This document shows positions 39,940-46,536 of a DNA stretch of 64,000 nucleotides, piece after piece. The stretch is from an uncultured Thiotrichales bacterium. GTDB lineage: Bacteria > Pseudomonadota > Gammaproteobacteria > UBA4575. Numbering within the stretch: position 1 is the first letter of the stretch; every line of letters begins with the position of its first letter. The notes under the pieces were generated by a model. That model saw only the letters and a list, made by a program, of their open reading frames with translations. It was not told the DNA's origin and did no database searches. The stretch spans positions 2,919 to 66,918 of the forward strand of contig CAZAOO010000007.1 of the NCBI GenBank assembly GCA_964486815.1, read 5' to 3'. A program made the translations under genes and the position numbers.

Positions 39940-41007
39940 TTAAACACCTAACCGTCTGCGCATTGAAAGCGCGATAACTAACAACAGCATTGCCGCGTGC
40001 ACCACAAACATGCCTGGCACCACGGGTAGCTTTCCATCTGCCACCCATGCTTCAGCGAGAATTAGTAGATTCGAGTAAATTAAATAAATTACGATAGCCA
40101 CCGCAAGCCCTGCAAAACGACCTCGCCGAGGACTGGTTACACTAAGTGGAAACGCCAATAAAGCCAGCAATACTGCAGCAATAGGCACTGAAATTCGCCA
40201 TTGAAGCTCTGCCGTATCCACCAACTTATTAGATTTTAATAATTCGACAGTAGATTTGAATTCGGGATTTTGAGCATCAATATTGATATCAAACTTCGGG
40301 ATACGCACTGCATGTTGATCAAACTCTAATAAAGCAAAGCCACCTTCTCCAGGTGTGCCTTCATAACGCTGGCCTTGTTTAAGAATTAGAGATTCACCAC
40401 CAAGTTCTGTTAAATTTTTCTGCTCAGCATGCAGGGCAGTTTCTATCGCAACATTGCCATCTCTTCGGTCGTATATGAAAACATTACTCACTTCACCCGT
40501 TTCTCGATCTGACTGTTCTACAAAAACCACCCAATTGCCTTGACTTGATTCTATAAATTGACCAGGTGTTAAGCTATATATGTCTGTTAAACCACCAGCT
40601 TTTTGTTTGATCGTTTCTATTTGCTGTTCTGCCCAGGGTGCTGAATATATTGACAAGTAAAACAAGAATGCAATTAATGGTATGAACAGCAAACTCGCAT
40701 AACGTAACAATGAACGCGACCCGATTCCACTAGCATTAATTGCATAAATTTCACTATCGCGATAATAACGCCCCAAGGTGAGCATAATGGTTAACAGTAA
40801 CGCAAATGGAATCAATAAAATTGCCGACTTTAAAACCCCAAGACCCAACATTGATAGCACTACATCTGAAGGCAGCTTTCCCTTCATCACTTTCGCAAGC
40901 AAACTCACAAATGATTGGCCGACAATGACCACTAGCAAAATAACACTTACGCCGACGAAAGTTTGAGCAAGCTCTTTTGAGAAATATCGATTTAAAGTAG
41001 AGAACAT
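39940..41007 (-). CDS. lptF: LPS export ABC transporter permease LptF
   Basis: LGRYYRDSEIYAINASGIG, AELQWRISVP, PRRGRF; divergent from pepA. Confidence 0.93.
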   Translation of the reverse strand: MFSTLNRYFSKELAQTFVGVSVILLVVIVGQSFVSLLAKVMKGKLPSDVVLSMLGLGVLKSAILLIPFALLLTIMLTLGRYYRDSEIYAINASGIGSRSLLRYASLLFIPLIAFLFYLSIYSAPWAEQQIETIKQKAGGLTDIYSLTPGQFIESSQGNWVVFVEQSDRETGEVSNVFIYDRRDGNVAIETALHAEQKNLTELGGESLILKQGQRYEGTPGEGGFALLEFDQHAVRIPKFDINIDAQNPEFKSTVELLKSNKLVDTAELQWRISVPIAAVLLALLAFPLSVTSPRRGRFAGLAVAIVIYLIYSNLLILAEAWVADGKLPVVPGMFVVHAAMLLLVIALSMRRRLGV

Positions 41008-41104
41008 ATATGAGTATTATTACTACAGACCAGATCCTTTGGTTACATTTAGCTCAATATTAGCAATAATGCATCACGCACAAACAGTTTAATTGAGGAT
41101 TACC

Positions 41105-42601
41105 ATGGATTACATTGCCAAAACCACTTCCGTAGATAAAGAAAGCGCAGATTGTGCTGTAGTGGGTATATTCAAGCCCAAACGACTCAGTGACTCAGCC
41201 AAGAGACTCGACAAACTTTACAAAGGCAGTATTACCAGTGCCTGTCAGCGCGGTACAGCCGGAGGCAATCTAGCGCAAATCACCACTATACAAAACTCTG
41301 GTCGTAGTAAACATAAAAGTATCATTATTGTCGGCTGCGGAGAGCATAACAAGCTCACGGTTAGCGCTTATCAAAGAATCCTTGAAGCAGTAGCAAGTGA
41401 AATTAAACGAAACAAAACTAGCCATATCATCAACTGTTTAACCGAGCTACCGGTAAAAAATGTTGATGCTCTCACTAAGGCTCAGCTCTGTGTTACTGCT
41501 ATTGAATCTTCAATGTATTGCTACAGTGAAACCAAGCCAAGTGCAGCTGATTCTAAAACACAGCTTAAAAAGCAAAAATTTATTGCCAGCCATAAACAAG
41601 AGCTAGATGATATTCGTGATGGTATCGAAGTAGGTCAAGCCATTGCTAGCGGCATGGATCTAGCCAAAGAACTTGGCAACCTGCCTGGAAATGTTTGCAC
41701 ACCAACTTACCTTGCAGAACAAGCGCTGGCACTGAAAAAAGTTAATAAAAGCCTGAAAGTAACTGTGCTTGAAGAAGCACAAATGAAGAAACTGGGTATG
41801 GGTGCTTTACTTTCGGTTTCCAATGGAAGTGTCGAGCCTGCAAAACTAGTCACCATGGAATATAAGGGTGGCAATGCAGATGAGCGTCCTATTGTATTGG
41901 TTGGCAAAGGCATTACCTTTGATACCGGTGGAATTTCTTTAAAACCGGGTGCGACCATGGATGAAATGAAGTTTGACATGTGTGGCGCTGCAAGTGTTCT
42001 AGGCACGATGAAATCATGTTGTGAATTAGAACTGCCGATTAATGTAGTTGGTGTGATTGCTTGTGCAGAAAACATGCCTGGCGGCAAAGCTACCAAACCC
42101 GGTGATGTGGTAACTACTATGTCCGGCCAGACCGTTGAAATTTTAAATACTGATGCAGAAGGCCGCTTAGTGTTATGTGATGCACTGACCTATGTGGATA
42201 AATTTGACCCTGAAATAGTCATCGATATTGCAACCCTCACAGGTGCGTGCGTCGTTGCGTTGGGACAAATTCCCTCTGGCGTAATGAGCAATAATGATGA
42301 CTTAGCCAAAGCACTCATTAAGGCTGGCGAACAAACAGGTGATCGCACCTGGCAATTGCCACTCTGGGACGAGTACCAATCTGAACTCGATAGTAATTTT
42401 GCAGATATCGCTAATATCGGCGGACGCTGGGGTGGGACCATCACCGCTGCATGTTTTCTTTCCAGATTCACCAAAAAATATACTTGGGCTCATTTAGATA
42501 TCGCTGGCATTGCTTGGCACCAGGGTAAAATGAAAGGTGCTACCGGTAGACCCGTTCCTTTGTTAACCGAGTACTTATTACATCAAGCCTATGAGATGTA
42601 A
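41105..42601 (+). CDS. pepA: Leucyl aminopeptidase (start at ATG 41105 after GAGG)
   Basis: VGKGITFDTGGISLK, MKFDMCG, NTDAEGRL, ATLTGA. Confidence 0.97.
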   Translation: MDYIAKTTSVDKESADCAVVGIFKPKRLSDSAKRLDKLYKGSITSACQRGTAGGNLAQITTIQNSGRSKHKSIIIVGCGEHNKLTVSAYQRILEAVASEIKRNKTSHIINCLTELPVKNVDALTKAQLCVTAIESSMYCYSETKPSAADSKTQLKKQKFIASHKQELDDIRDGIEVGQAIASGMDLAKELGNLPGNVCTPTYLAEQALALKKVNKSLKVTVLEEAQMKKLGMGALLSVSNGSVEPAKLVTMEYKGGNADERPIVLVGKGITFDTGGISLKPGATMDEMKFDMCGAASVLGTMKSCCELELPINVVGVIACAENMPGGKATKPGDVVTTMSGQTVEILNTDAEGRLVLCDALTYVDKFDPEIVIDIATLTGACVVALGQIPSGVMSNNDDLAKALIKAGEQTGDRTWQLPLWDEYQSELDSNFADIANIGGRWGGTITAACFLSRFTKKYTWAHLDIAGIAWHQGKMKGATGRPVPLLTEYLLHQAYEM

Positions 42602-42609
42602 GTGTTGAG

Positions 42610-43110
42610 ATGGCTTCTTCTACCAATACAAATGGCAATACTCCAGGCAATAGCTACACTGATGCTTCCAAAGATATTCCAAGAGTAGATTTCTACGTCT
42701 CAAAAGCCAAGGAACCTGCTCCTCAGTTTGCCTTGCAGACTGTCTGCCGTATTGCGGAGAAAGCATTTTCAGCAGGCCATCGCATCCACATTTGTGTCAG
42801 TAGCTCCAATGATTGTGAAAAATTGGATGCTTTGTTATGGACATTTCGTGATCGCAGTTTCATTCCACATGAAATATCTGATACTCCAATACCAAATTGC
42901 CCGGTCACCCTGAGCACCAGAATTGATGCAAAACACAGCGATATGCTACTTAATGTAACGCATGAAGTGCCTGAAAATTTCAGGCAATTTCAAAGAATTG
43001 CAGAAATTATTGATAATCAGCCAGAGTCTGTTGTCACTGGTCGTGAACGTTACCGCTTTTATCGTGAGAGCGGGCTTGACCCCCAACACCATGAAGTATC
43101 CTCTGGTTGA
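42610..43110 (+). CDS. holC: DNA polymerase III chi subunit
   Basis: RVDFY, LDALLWTF..SFIPH, RERYRFYR; pepA-holC-valS synteny. Confidence 0.93.
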   Translation: MASSTNTNGNTPGNSYTDASKDIPRVDFYVSKAKEPAPQFALQTVCRIAEKAFSAGHRIHICVSSSNDCEKLDALLWTFRDRSFIPHEISDTPIPNCPVTLSTRIDAKHSDMLLNVTHEVPENFRQFQRIAEIIDNQPESVVTGRERYRFYRESGLDPQHHEVSSG

Positions 43111-43136
43111 CTTAATCAATTATTTCTCTTGCTTCT

Positions 43137-43505
43137 ATGGATGGAAACAGCGCAAAAACAGCTCCTGTCTTGGATCATTTAGTAGCTACCGGCAGTGTAT
43201 CGTCTAGCAACAAATCCACACCAATATTACAAACACAGAACCTACAAGCTAAGCCAGTATTAGCCACTACGAATGGTAGTGGTGCGCCTAAAACTCCAGT
43301 TCCCAAAGCAGTTGTACAAAATACAACCACACAGACTGATAATGCCCCACAGAATCGACGTACAGATAAATCAGAATTTGAAATTCAACTTACGAATACC
43401 GTAAACAAAATAATGCTTGAGCACTTTGAGCACGCAAGTGAACAAATTGTACAAAAAGTATTGAGCGAAGTTCGCGCACGCTTGCCAGGACAAAGAAAAT
43501 CTTAA
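43137..43505 (+). CDS. Hypothetical protein with a disordered linker and C-terminal amphipathic helix (PopZ-like layout)
   Basis: ATG ORF co-oriented between holC and valS; low-complexity T/Q/P/S/N middle; helical C-terminus. Confidence 0.72.
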   Translation: MDGNSAKTAPVLDHLVATGSVSSSNKSTPILQTQNLQAKPVLATTNGSGAPKTPVPKAVVQNTTTQTDNAPQNRRTDKSEFEIQLTNTVNKIMLEHFEHASEQIVQKVLSEVRARLPGQRKS

Positions 43506-43714
43506 CCGAATAGCGTCCTTATGGGCTCTAAAAGCATAGATTCATTTAGATCACCCCATGCCATCCCACCTCCTCTTAGCTCTCGTGTGGGCTAGATTAA
43601 TATTGTTATACTAGAAACTTGCAAAGAGTTCTTGTCTCTCTACAGCATACAAAAATACAAACATCTCAAATTAAATCTTTAAACATCAGGTTATCGAAAT
43701 ACTCCCATAATTTC

Positions 43715-43759
43715 GACACGGCTAGACACAGATAGACTAGACACGGATAGACATGGATA
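43715..43759 (+). repeat. Degenerate 10-bp tandem repeat spanning the valS start
   Basis: GACACGGCTA GACACAGATA GACTA GACACGGATA GACATGGATA; the last unit contains the ATG at 43753. Confidence 0.75.
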
Positions 43760-46536
43760 AGACCTACCAACCGAAGAATATCGAACAGAAATGGTATCAG
43801 TTCTGGAAAAGCAATAATTACTTCTCACCATCCGGTGAAGGCAGCAATGCTTACTGCATCATGATTCCACCTCCCAATGTAACGGGAACCTTACATATGG
43901 GACATGCATTCAATAACACATTAATGGACTGCCTAACTCGCTATCATCGAATGTGTGGCTACAACACATTGTGGCAACCGGGTACGGATCATGCGGGCAT
44001 TGCGACTCAGATGGTGGTTGAACGACAACTCAATGCAGAGAATAAAACTCGTCACGATTTAGGCAGAGAAAAGTTCGTAGACAAAGTATGGGAGTGGAAA
44101 GAACAGTCTGGTAATGCTATTTATGGCCAGTTGGAACGCATGGGCTCATCTCTAGACTGGTCGCGTGAACGCTTCACCATGGACGATGGTCTGTCTGAAG
44201 CCGTTAAACAAGTGTTCGTTCGCCTCTATGACGAAGACCTGATTTATCGAGGCAAACGTTTGGTGAATTGGGACCCAAAACTTCATACTGCGGTTTCTGA
44301 CCTAGAAGTTATCTCGGTAGAGGAAAACGGTCACATGTGGCACATGCGTTACCCCTTGGTTGATTCGAAGATGGCCGATGGTAGTGACCATATTACAGTA
44401 GCCACCACACGACCAGAGACCATGCTGGGTGATACAGCAGTTGCCGTACATCCAGATGACGAACGTTATAAAAGTTTAATTGGAAAAAGCGTAAAGCTAC
44501 CTTTAACAGATCGTGAAATACCTGTTATAGCAGACGACTACGTGGACCCAGAATTTGGTTCCGGTTGTGTAAAAATTACTCCCGCTCATGATTTTAACGA
44601 CTATGAAGTTGGCATGCGCCACGATTTAGAAAAAATTAACATTTTTACTATTGATGCCAAAATTAACCATAACGCACCTGCAAAATATCAAGGACTGGAT
44701 CGCTTTGAAGCACGTAAGCAAATTGTTGAAGATCTGAAAGCACAAAATCTGTTAGCAGAAATCAAAGACCACAAACTTATGGTGCCTCGCGGTGATCGTT
44801 CTGGTGTAGTGGTAGAACCATACTTGACCGATCAATGGTATGTGAAAATACAACCTTTAGCGGACCCGGCTATCAAAGCCGTTAAAGATGGAGATATTCA
44901 GTTTGTTCCTGAAAACTGGAGCAAGACTTACTTTGAATGGATGAATAATATTCAAGACTGGTGCATTAGCCGTCAACTTTGGTGGGGGCATCGCATACCT
45001 GCATGGTATGACAATGACGGAAAGATTTATGTAGCTGAAAACGAAGAAGAAGTACGGAAAAAATATAATCTGGATGCTGATTTTGAGCTTAAGCAAGATG
45101 AAGATGTACTGGATACCTGGTTTTCATCTGCACTATGGCCATTCTCGACTTTAGGTTGGCCCGAACAAACCAAAGAACTAAAAACATTTTATCCCACTTC
45201 AGTTCTAATCACAGGATTCGACATTATTTTCTTTTGGGTCGCACGCATGATCATGATGGGATTGAAGTTCATGGACGATGTTCCATTTAAAAAAGTATAT
45301 ATCCATGGTCTTGTTCGCGATGCTGATGGGCAGAAAATGTCAAAGTCTAAAGGTAATGTGTTAGACCCTATCGACATTATTGATGGCATTGATCTCGATA
45401 CATTAATCAAGAAACGCACAAGTGGCCTGATGCAGCCGGAGATGGCAGCAAAGATTGAGAAAGCCACTCGCAAACAATATCCAGACGGTATCAAAGCCTA
45501 TGGTACAGATGCCATGCGCTTTTCATTTGCCGCACAAGCCTCGACAGGACGAGACATTAAATTTGATTTAAATCGCATCGAAGGATATAGAAATTTTTGT
45601 AACAAACTTTGGAATGCTACAAATTTCGTATTAATGAATACTGAAGAAAAAGAAGTAGCTAATCAGATTGACAAGCAACTTCTTACTTTGGCGGACCGCT
45701 GGATTTTAAGCAAGCAGCAAGAGACCATCGACCTTACCCACAAACATTTAAAAAATTACCGCTTTGATCTTGCTGCACAAGCATTGTATGAATTTTCCTG
45801 GCATGAATTTTGTGACTGGTATGTTGAATTATGCAAACCGACTCTGTTTAAAGATGATATTGATGAAAAAGTTAAGCAAAATTCGCGCCGCGTGCTATTG
45901 GAAGTGTTTGAAAGCTTATTGAAACTGCTGCACCCAATCATTCCGTTTTTAACTGAAGAAATATGGCAACCAATAGCAAAACAATTAAAGTTATCAGGTG
46001 ACAGCATCTCAGTCCAAGACTTCCCAAGAAGTAACAATGCCTATGTCGACATTGAAAGCCTACAAGAATTGGAATGGTCTAAAGAATTCATTAATGGTAT
46101 TCGCAAGATACGTTCCGAAATGGACATCCCCCCGGGGAAACCATTAAGTATTTTGCTACAAAATTGGTCTTCACAAGAGCAAAATTATTTTAAGCACAGC
46201 CAGCAATATATTCACTCGCTGGCAAAAGTTGAAGGCATTGAATGGTTAAAGGATGATGATTCCGCACCGGAATCTGCTACTGCATTAGTAGGAGAAATGA
46301 AAATTCTTATCCCTCTCGCAGGATTAATAGACAAAGAAGCTGAAAGGGCAAGATTGGACAAAGAGATCAAAAAATTAGAAACCAATCTGGAAAAAAGTTC
46401 GGGAAAATTAAAAAACCCTAACTTTGCTGACAAAGCACCTGCAGATATTGTAGATAAAGAACGTGAGCGAATTGCAGAAATGCAAACTTCATTACAGCAA
46501 CTTAAAGAGCAAGCAGATAAAATAAACAAGCTTTAG
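43753..46536 (+). CDS. valS: Valine--tRNA ligase
   Basis: [14 protein letters not shown] (HIGH), [18 protein letters not shown]-terminal coiled coil. Confidence 0.99.

Follow-up and report, generated by a model that had tools for sequence, protein, structure and literature searches.

A conserved, unnamed protein family at the holC-valS junction with a putative motif-linker-helix adaptor build

The holC-valS junction contains a conserved gene

The DNA analysed here is a stretch of 64,000 nucleotides (nt), hereafter the window, from an uncultured Thiotrichales bacterium of the Gammaproteobacteria (GenBank assembly GCA_964486815.1, contig CAZAOO010000007.1, positions 2,919 to 66,918 of the forward strand). 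The element of interest is an open reading frame (ORF), ORF X, which lies between holC and valS and encodes X, a member of an unnamed protein family with a putative adaptor build (Table 1). ORF X starts 26 nt after the holC stop codon and is followed 247 nt further on by the start of valS, and lptF and lptG lie divergently, on the minus strand, on the other side of the pepA-holC-X-valS row. An earlier reading, made from the letters of this DNA without database searches (the sequence-only reading), had proposed that a 122-amino-acid (aa) frame at 43137-43505 encodes a PopZ-like polar scaffold directly upstream of valS. The frame and its position next to valS on the same strand were both confirmed.

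The X protein gave no match to Pfam and NCBIfam models even at E<=10. In a six-frame search, intact copies of ORF X were found in 16 of 41 related genomes; within the family, 15 of the 24 other genomes had a copy, and among the 16 genomes from other families of the class 0 had one. When 105 pairs from 15 genomes were compared, the ratio of nonsynonymous to synonymous differences per site (pN/pS) was 0.171 and 0.175 over the N-terminal 16 codons and the C-terminal 46 codons, respectively, at pS values of 0.6-0.8 that bring the synonymous sites near saturation. The gene order pepA-holC-X-valS was found in 14 of the 15 relatives' loci, and in the 15th the contig starts at X with valS still downstream. 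Thus, the gene for chi is upstream of ORF X in 14/15 close loci and valS is downstream in 15/15. These findings show that ORF X is a real gene, conserved among relatives and under purifying selection (pN/pS approximately 0.17).

Table 1. Genes of the pepA-holC-X-valS row and parts of the X protein, in window coordinates.
Feature	Position	Strand	Remarks
pepA (leucyl aminopeptidase)	41093..42601	+	PF00883 6.5e-130, PF02789 2.1e-22; first gene of the conserved pepA-holC-X-valS row
holC (DNA polymerase III chi)	42610..43110	+	PF04364 1.6e-34
ORF X	43137..43505	+	ATG start, 122 aa; member of the unnamed holC-valS family
N-terminal block, residues 1-16 (MDGNSAKTAPVLDHLV)	43137..43184	+	Conserved; holds the family motif h-P-h-L-D-x-h-h
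Low-complexity linker, residues 17-70	43185..43346	+	Predicted disordered; length and sequence vary
C-terminal block, residues 71-118 (PQNRRTDKSEFEI...VRARLPG)	43347..43490	+	Conserved
Single amphipathic helix (predicted), residues 80-115	43374..43481	+	AlphaFold2; hydrophobic moment
valS (valine-tRNA ligase)	43753..46536	+	NF004349 1332 bits, TIGR00422 1218 bits

The X protein has two conserved ends and a variable middle

Alignments of 34 and 75 homologues showed that both ends of the protein are conserved and that the middle is variable, in agreement with the three-part build proposed by the sequence-only reading, whose quoted strings PVLDHLV and EFEIQLTNTVNKIMLEHFEHASEQIVQKVLSEVRARL correspond to residues 10-16 and 80-116, respectively. 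The start MDGNSAKKAPVLDHLV was invariant in both alignments. Among the 75 sequences, M1, P10 and L12 were invariant, and G3, N4, A6, K7, K8, D13, L15 and V16 were conserved in at least 90 %. The C-terminal consensus in both alignments was PQNRRTDKSxFEIELTxTVNxIMLKHFExASEQIVQQVLSEVRARLPG, and the majority of the 21 invariant columns of the whole protein fell within the C-terminal block. The linker is composed of 48 % S/T/N/Q, 9 % P and 2 % D/E, with a net charge of +3.

AlphaFold2, run with the 75-row alignment, predicted one helix of 36 residues, with a predicted local distance difference test score (pLDDT) of 77-89 in the block and a mean of 63 over the protein. Everything outside this helix was low-confidence coil, and the pLDDT of the linker was 42-48. 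The hydrophobic moment of the helix was maximal at 92 degrees, which equals a period of approximately four residues, and hydrophobic pairs recur along it every four residues. No matches to the family profile were found among PDB sequences at E<=10, and no longer, fused forms of X were found at E<=0.001 among 8,000 candidates, which is weak evidence.

A C-terminal amphipathic helix followed by a basic tail might lie on the membrane, and X would then act as a tether at the membrane periphery instead of forming an oligomer. The high hydrophobic moment (1.5), the wide hydrophobic face of the helix and the basic tail RARLPGQRKS are consistent with such a role. Nevertheless, we consider it very unlikely: conserved acidic and polar residues occur along the helix, E82, E102 and E111 being invariant or nearly so, the usual membrane-targeting helices are far shorter than 36 residues, and X contains neither a hydrophobic segment nor a signal sequence.

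X belongs to an unnamed family encoded directly after holC

In a collection of 5.8 billion proteins, 78 homologues of X were found, all of them unnamed or annotated as 'hypothetical' and all without a Pfam domain. When 1.84 billion representatives were searched with the profile, 23 proteins were found at E<=0.001, and the weaker profile matches (85-122 aa) were made up of the same three parts as X. The distant members carry IPTLxELIxPG near the N-terminus, then a linker, and AFEAxIEAxVxEILxRHMExARxEITRxVLxEVRARLP at the C-terminus. The window subfamily and the distant subfamily were aligned by hhalign at 99.1 % (E=4.7e-19) over 47 columns of the C-terminal block. The ESM Atlas returned just unnamed Pseudomonadota clusters, with scores of 0.83-0.84 that are under the lead threshold. 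Matches of distant members to the Pfam models SRA1, DUF4211 and EnY2 (E 0.006-0.1) were put down to noise from helices or composition. In the literature, no paper on this family was found (supplements were outside the search), a search for DUF2486 brought nothing relevant, and neither did one for PA3833, a Pseudomonas locus tag.

When 400 genomes of the class were searched with the distant profile, a match was found in 27. Each match was the best in its whole genome, and therefore even matches with E values of approximately 1e-4 at the holC-valS position are unlikely to be due to chance. Among the 25 class-wide loci inspected, one of which (L055) is from the unpublished genome G606, chi was encoded upstream in 23, valS was downstream in 23 and pepA was present in 24. 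All of them carry [DE]-h-P-h-L-x-[DE]-h-h-x-PG together with a C-terminal helix of the type h..hI..hh.RH.E.hR.Eh. The short linear motif of the family can be written as [DE]-h-P-h-L-[DT]-[DE]-h-h, often followed by x-P-G; its version in the window is APVLDHLV. In larger relatives the motif occurs twice, and an amphipathic helix is added at the N-terminus. ORF X has the motif, the variable linker, the C-terminal helix (F-E...R-A-R-L-P) and the position of this family. These findings show that X belongs to an unnamed beta- and gammaproteobacterial family encoded directly after holC and usually before valS.

In a class sample of one genome per family, valS followed holC in 21 of 30 loci, nine of which had gaps of less than 140 nt. 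As judged by eye, the gap ORFs of approximately 10 of these 30 loci were X-like, with relaxed motifs such as LPLLEDVVIPG and IPVLEEVIVPG and, in several cases, an N-terminal helix; locus L160, from the unpublished genome G359, is without an X-like ORF. In two loci the frame after holC is lengthened, to 691 aa in L079 (genome G562) and 490 aa in L136 (genome G739). Both long frames have the motif near their start, followed by long helical repeats, and the frame of L079 runs on into valS without an intervening stop.

The family motif is shared with DUF2486 and with Burkholderiales proteins

The sequence-only reading had cautioned that DUF2486-type frames between holC and valS might be the family in question. 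This held for the N-terminal motif and the position after holC; the C-terminal domain of DUF2486 was not shared, and the X protein gave no match to PF10667 (DUF2486) at E<=10. Two distant relatives of X scored 17.6 and 15.8 bits on PF10667, under its cut-off of 22 bits. A DUF2486 protein that starts with MTQAESSSIPTLTDVLVPGKP was found in a 7.1-Mb genome; its close relatives are named Burkholderia by the sources. Its gene lies directly after pepA-holC, and is followed by cytochrome-like and dehydratase-like ORFs instead of valS. The DUF2486 motif IPTLTDVLVPG is the same motif as APVLDHLV of the window and IPTLxELIxPG of the distant subfamily, and DUF2486 and X are also alike in their position directly after holC and in having a disordered middle and a helical C-terminus. 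In contrast, the DUF2486 proteins are 218-264 aa long and have two or three motif copies, and their C-terminal domains do not align with those of the distant X subfamily: hhalign of this subfamily against 16 DUF2486 proteins gave 53.8 % (E=1.3e-4) solely over 18 N-terminal columns. The beta C-terminus compared with the gamma C-terminus gave 3.2 %, and the reversed controls gave 3.9-5.5 %. As modelled, DUF2486 is narrow: of the 301 phylum genomes and the 121 Burkholderiales genomes, one each passed the PF10667 cut-off, and this was the one Burkholderia genome. The kinship of DUF2486 with X is confined to the motif and the position after holC.

The arrangement itself is not narrow. In 30 Burkholderiales holC loci, the motif was present in the ORF after holC in 26, valS followed in 25, and both were found in 21. 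The chance of the motif pattern was put at approximately 0.01 per locus, an estimate made without a shuffle control; the Burkholderiales tally includes the unpublished genome G729, no locus of which is among those used. The start codon of these ORFs often overlaps the holC stop codon. The proteins usually start with an amphipathic helix of the type LLxKhDALLxRHR and contain IP[TV]LT[DE]hh once or twice; their linker is acidic and rich in proline, their C-terminal helices are long, and none of them matched a Pfam or NCBIfam model.

A putative adaptor that shares its place and helix period with PopZ

We give an even chance to the reading that X is a putative modular adaptor or scaffold made of motif, linker and helix, PopZ-like in its logic. 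In such a protein the C-terminal helix would self-associate or dock on a fixed partner, the N-terminal motif would capture a client, and the disordered linker would serve as a flexible spacer. The adaptor logic would be the same as that of PopZ, and the gene occupies the place of popZ beside valS; membership in PopZ/DUF2497 found no support in sequence. A PopZ-type hub, which we hold to be unlikely, and a chi or replisome factor, which we hold to be improbable, are two versions of the adaptor reading that are compatible with each other. The family, present across many beta- and gammaproteobacterial lineages, would be a handle on the organisation of the pole or the replisome and a naturally reduced example of a scaffold that forms condensates. 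Should there be no relation to PopZ, what is left is a widespread family without annotation that is bound to the junction between holC and valS and has a sharply conserved short linear motif at its core.

For the comparison with PopZ, 30 DUF2497 loci were taken from a 301-genome phylum sample and 17 of the proteins were aligned. In 25 of these 30 alphaproteobacterial loci, popZ was immediately followed by valS on the same strand. The adjacency of popZ and valS, which the sequence-only reading had given correctly, is also stated for Agrobacterium and Caulobacter in PMC5686542. According to PMC12999525, the trimer-forming H3H4 helix of PopZ comprises residues 136-171, that is, 36 residues, and the predicted helix of X is equal to it in length. 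The hydrophobic moment was maximal at 91.7 +/- 0.5 degrees in the X family (n=86) and at 89.7 +/- 0.5 degrees in PopZ (n=21), and the terminal helices of both have hydrophobic pairs every four residues, an unusual period. X and PopZ are also alike in having conserved ends with a disordered linker between them. Moreover, the larger relatives of X have, like PopZ, an N-terminal amphipathic helix and an acidic proline-rich linker; the linkers of the beta relatives have a mean net charge of -6, with 15 % D/E and 15 % P. When a binary hydrophobic-pattern score derived from PopZ was applied to ORF X, the best window was at residue 81. This is the register of the FE/LE pairing that had been drawn by eye in the sequence-only reading, and it was also the best in 66 of 87 family members; the match itself is weak (p approximately 0.08).

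Several results weigh against the adaptor reading and its likeness to PopZ. The PopZ pattern score was reached by 7.8 % of 6,310 random 122-residue segments of the proteome and by 1.2 % of 2,000 shuffles. The hydrophobic period of four differs from the 3.5-residue heptad of ordinary coiled coils, and in the best heptad register only 6 of 10 a/d positions were hydrophobic, with Ala counted. In the AlphaFold2 model the N-terminal block, at a pLDDT of 58-65, makes no contact with the helix. The window linker is neutral to basic, unlike the acidic linkers of PopZ, which have a mean net charge of -19, 25 % D/E and 19 % P; a caveat to this effect in the sequence-only reading was justified. The strict motif was found after holC in just 4 of the 30 class loci sampled at one genome per family. 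Finally, when a sample of 300 phylum genomes was searched with a family profile that included the window subfamily, there was no match beyond the window's genome. This indicates that the window subfamily is narrow and is connected to the wider family through short motifs and synteny.

PopZ homology is not supported by sequence

The stronger form of the PopZ comparison is that X is a true PopZ orthologue, strongly diverged and shrunken, in which helix trimers or hexamers would build a polar hub or condensate and the N-terminal motif would recruit clients. We regard this as unlikely, although a number of observations are in its favour. The place is the same, valS following popZ in 25/30 loci and X in 15/15 close and 23/25 class-wide loci. 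The larger relatives are collinear with PopZ in their build (N-terminal helix, acidic proline-rich linker, acidic-hydrophobic motif in the middle of the linker, C-terminal helices), and PopZ sequences also have a linker motif, of the type DVLELTD. Strings that look PopZ-like by eye are WLERNMP in L137 and HLDIVLPEILDE in L070, L075 and L156, and the helix corresponds in its length of 36 residues, its four-residue period and its best register, its length and period being compatible with assembly into trimers or hexamers. All 85 genomes of the phylum sample with a match to PF10691 (DUF2497) lie outside the window's class, so that the PopZ and X families were not seen together. When the C-terminal 130 residues of 25 class-wide relatives, with 11 decoys each, were scored with a hidden Markov model (HMM) of the PopZ C-terminus, six of the seven best scores belonged to real sequences; these six come from approximately four lineages and are not independent.

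In contrast, the direct tests of homology failed. PF10691, whose gathering score is 27 bits and whose cut-off was passed by the Caulobacter control, gave no match to ORF X at E<=10, and the best match in the genome, on another contig, reached 11.3 bits (E=1.05). Comparison of the X family with PopZ by hhalign gave 0.78 % over 8 columns, in the register of the sequence-only reading, and the distant subfamily gave 1.45 %. When the C-terminal blocks alone were compared, values were 0.2-0.3 %, with 0.2 % for gamma against PopZ, and the N-terminal helices of the larger relatives against PopZ N-termini gave 0.1 %. The beta C-terminus reached 65 % against the PopZ C-terminus (score 27.9), compared to 32 % and 48 % for reversed controls (scores 23.6 and 25.6, respectively). 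With the local PopZ C-terminal HMM, real beta and gamma sequences were intermingled with reversed and shuffled decoys, and ORF X ranked 932nd of 20,823 six-frame frames in its own genome and 318th of the 3,123 frames of at least 100 aa. An HMM of the family motif scored 1.8 at best on the PopZ linker motif, against a decoy 99th percentile of 2.9. The beta member L137, which carries the string WLERNMP, matched PF10691 at E=0.96, ninth among chance-level matches. With a divergent PopZ as a bridge, two of the three gamma comparisons gave 19-25 %; the remaining one was no better than its reversed control, and for beta the reversed control scored higher.

The W, D, N, L and P of the W-L-D-x-N-L-P signature, invariant in the 17 PopZ sequences, are absent from X, as are PopZ H2 and the proline kink. 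No client-binding helix of the H1 type (MEEILASIRRII) is present in X, in which AlphaFold2 predicted no helix before residue 80, and the motif in residues 1-16 is unlike PopZ H1. X is also shorter, at 122 aa compared to 163-307 aa for the sampled PopZ proteins. Profile similarity to the PopZ C-terminus is thus lacking, a result that the sequence-only reading had itself named as speaking against its proposal. These findings show that PopZ homology of X is unsupported by sequence.

A wider proposal, which we put forward as doubtful, is that the small disordered proteins encoded upstream of valS in beta- and gammaproteobacteria, X included, may be unrecognised PopZ orthologues. If this were true, a self-assembling hub of the PopZ type would date back to the ancestor of Proteobacteria and would not have arisen within the alphaproteobacteria; in the beta and gamma classes its expression would be coupled to that of chi, the replisome subunit, and the window subfamily would be a minimal form of it, cut down to a single client motif, spacer and assembly helix. 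PopZ orthologues are described in PMC12999525 as spanning the alpha-proteobacteria, and no paper describing a beta- or gammaproteobacterial PopZ relative was found in the literature search, which did not extend to supplements.

Two small proteins from elsewhere in the phylum (L173:2302-2673, minus strand; L174:2574-2918, plus strand; frames of 115-124 aa) contain two tandem copies of a motif like the PopZ C-terminus, of the type MVRQWVRGLLPRVAEPLIREEIARLRE. Their whole-protein E values on the PopZ C-terminal HMM were 6e-11 and 8e-10, respectively, and their genes are not near valS, holC or pepA. No bridge from PopZ to X was found through these tandem-repeat proteins.

The neighbouring chi subunit as a partner of X

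The second version of the adaptor reading is that X is an accessory partner of chi (HolC), the clamp loader or the replisome, made in step with chi, and that its helix or motif binds chi, psi, SSB (the protein that binds single-stranded DNA) or a further protein of replication. Given how closely the gene adjoins holC, chi or the replisome comes first among the candidate partners. The 26-nt gap in the window, the frequent overlap with the holC stop codon in Burkholderiales, where the gap to valS is hundreds of bases, and the motif-bearing ORF after holC in 26/30 Burkholderiales loci all point in this direction. In one Burkholderia genome the ORF is kept with holC and valS is elsewhere. Chi is known to pair with either psi or YoaA (PMC8378479). 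We nevertheless hold this version to be improbable. The adjacency of holC and valS is itself ancestral, so that a position between them does not single out holC, and the nine class loci with the shortest gaps leave no room for X. Just one locus separates holC from its valS neighbour. The upstream neighbour of X is holC, in contrast to popZ, for which no chi gene was found within 1.5 kb upstream in any of the 30 loci; if X descended from PopZ, its link to holC would be secondary. Moreover, X contains no known chi-binding motif. A complex prediction for chi (15-row alignment) and X (75-row alignment) gave a score of 0.00, which is no answer and counts neither for nor against.

Two replication motifs were considered for X and dropped. 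The C-terminal tip of SSB is D-D-D-I-P-F, and mimicry of it was rejected in view of the K-K, rather than acids, that precedes the motif in the window subfamily. The beta-clamp-binding motif is QL[SD]LF; here the Q is missing and the spacing does not fit.

X is not needed as psi

X could also be the missing psi (HolD) subunit, its N-terminal peptide acting as a tether to the clamp loader and its helix binding chi. We consider this highly improbable. PF03603, the psi model, found nothing in the window's genome, which is 92 % complete, at E<=1, and many chi-bearing genomes are described as being without a recognisable psi in PMC3197488. The same paper gives the N-terminus of psi as disordered and conserved, so that psi resembles X in having at its N-terminus a conserved peptide that serves as a tether and sits on a disordered segment; the two are also alike in their genetic tie to chi. 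None of the 27 class genomes with X was among the 29 with PF03603, but approximately two overlaps would be expected by chance, so that the difference is not significant and says nothing. In contrast to these likenesses, the psi motif L..MGI..W is unlike that of X, and X, which is coil and one helix in the AlphaFold2 prediction, is without the alpha/beta globular core of psi. Furthermore, an HMM of the psi N-terminal peptide, built from the psi matches of the class, did not hit X and hit a 238-aa protein at the holD position of the same genome (E=4.2e-7). With a gene thus in place at the holD position, the genome does not call for X in the role of psi.

The gene of the 238-aa protein (contig C4 70958-71710, minus strand; L111:2959-3672, minus strand) is immediately upstream of a GNAT (rimI-like) gene and prfC, a location that we take to be like the holD-rimI...prfC arrangement of E. 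coli. In addition to the psi-type clamp-loader peptide YYLDQMGIQAW, the protein carries a full domain of the uracil-DNA glycosylase (UDG) superfamily (PF03167, 4e-39). Six other genomes of the class gave PF03603 matches confined to positions 2-34 of the profile; the frames concerned are 232-260 aa long (their ORFs 227-243 aa), and Cys motifs occur in several of them. The joint psi-UDG protein suggests one of two things: a descent of psi from a family-4-like UDG, or the tethering of a UDG to the clamp loader. No paper linking holD, psi or the clamp loader with family 4 uracil-DNA glycosylase was found in the literature.

Other features of the locus

Promoters and terminators were scanned over 40900-43800. 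In the 247-nt spacer between ORF X and valS (43506-43752), no promoter-like match was found, and one weak terminator-like hairpin was present at 43576-43595 on the plus strand. The counts over the scanned region were near shuffle expectation and were used as support for nothing. The holC ORF, as called, begins with a 23-residue N-terminal extension (MASSTNTNGNTPGNSYTDASKDI..., window 42610-42678) ahead of the Pfam match. This extension is variable or absent in relatives, indicating that the true start of holC may be further downstream than called.

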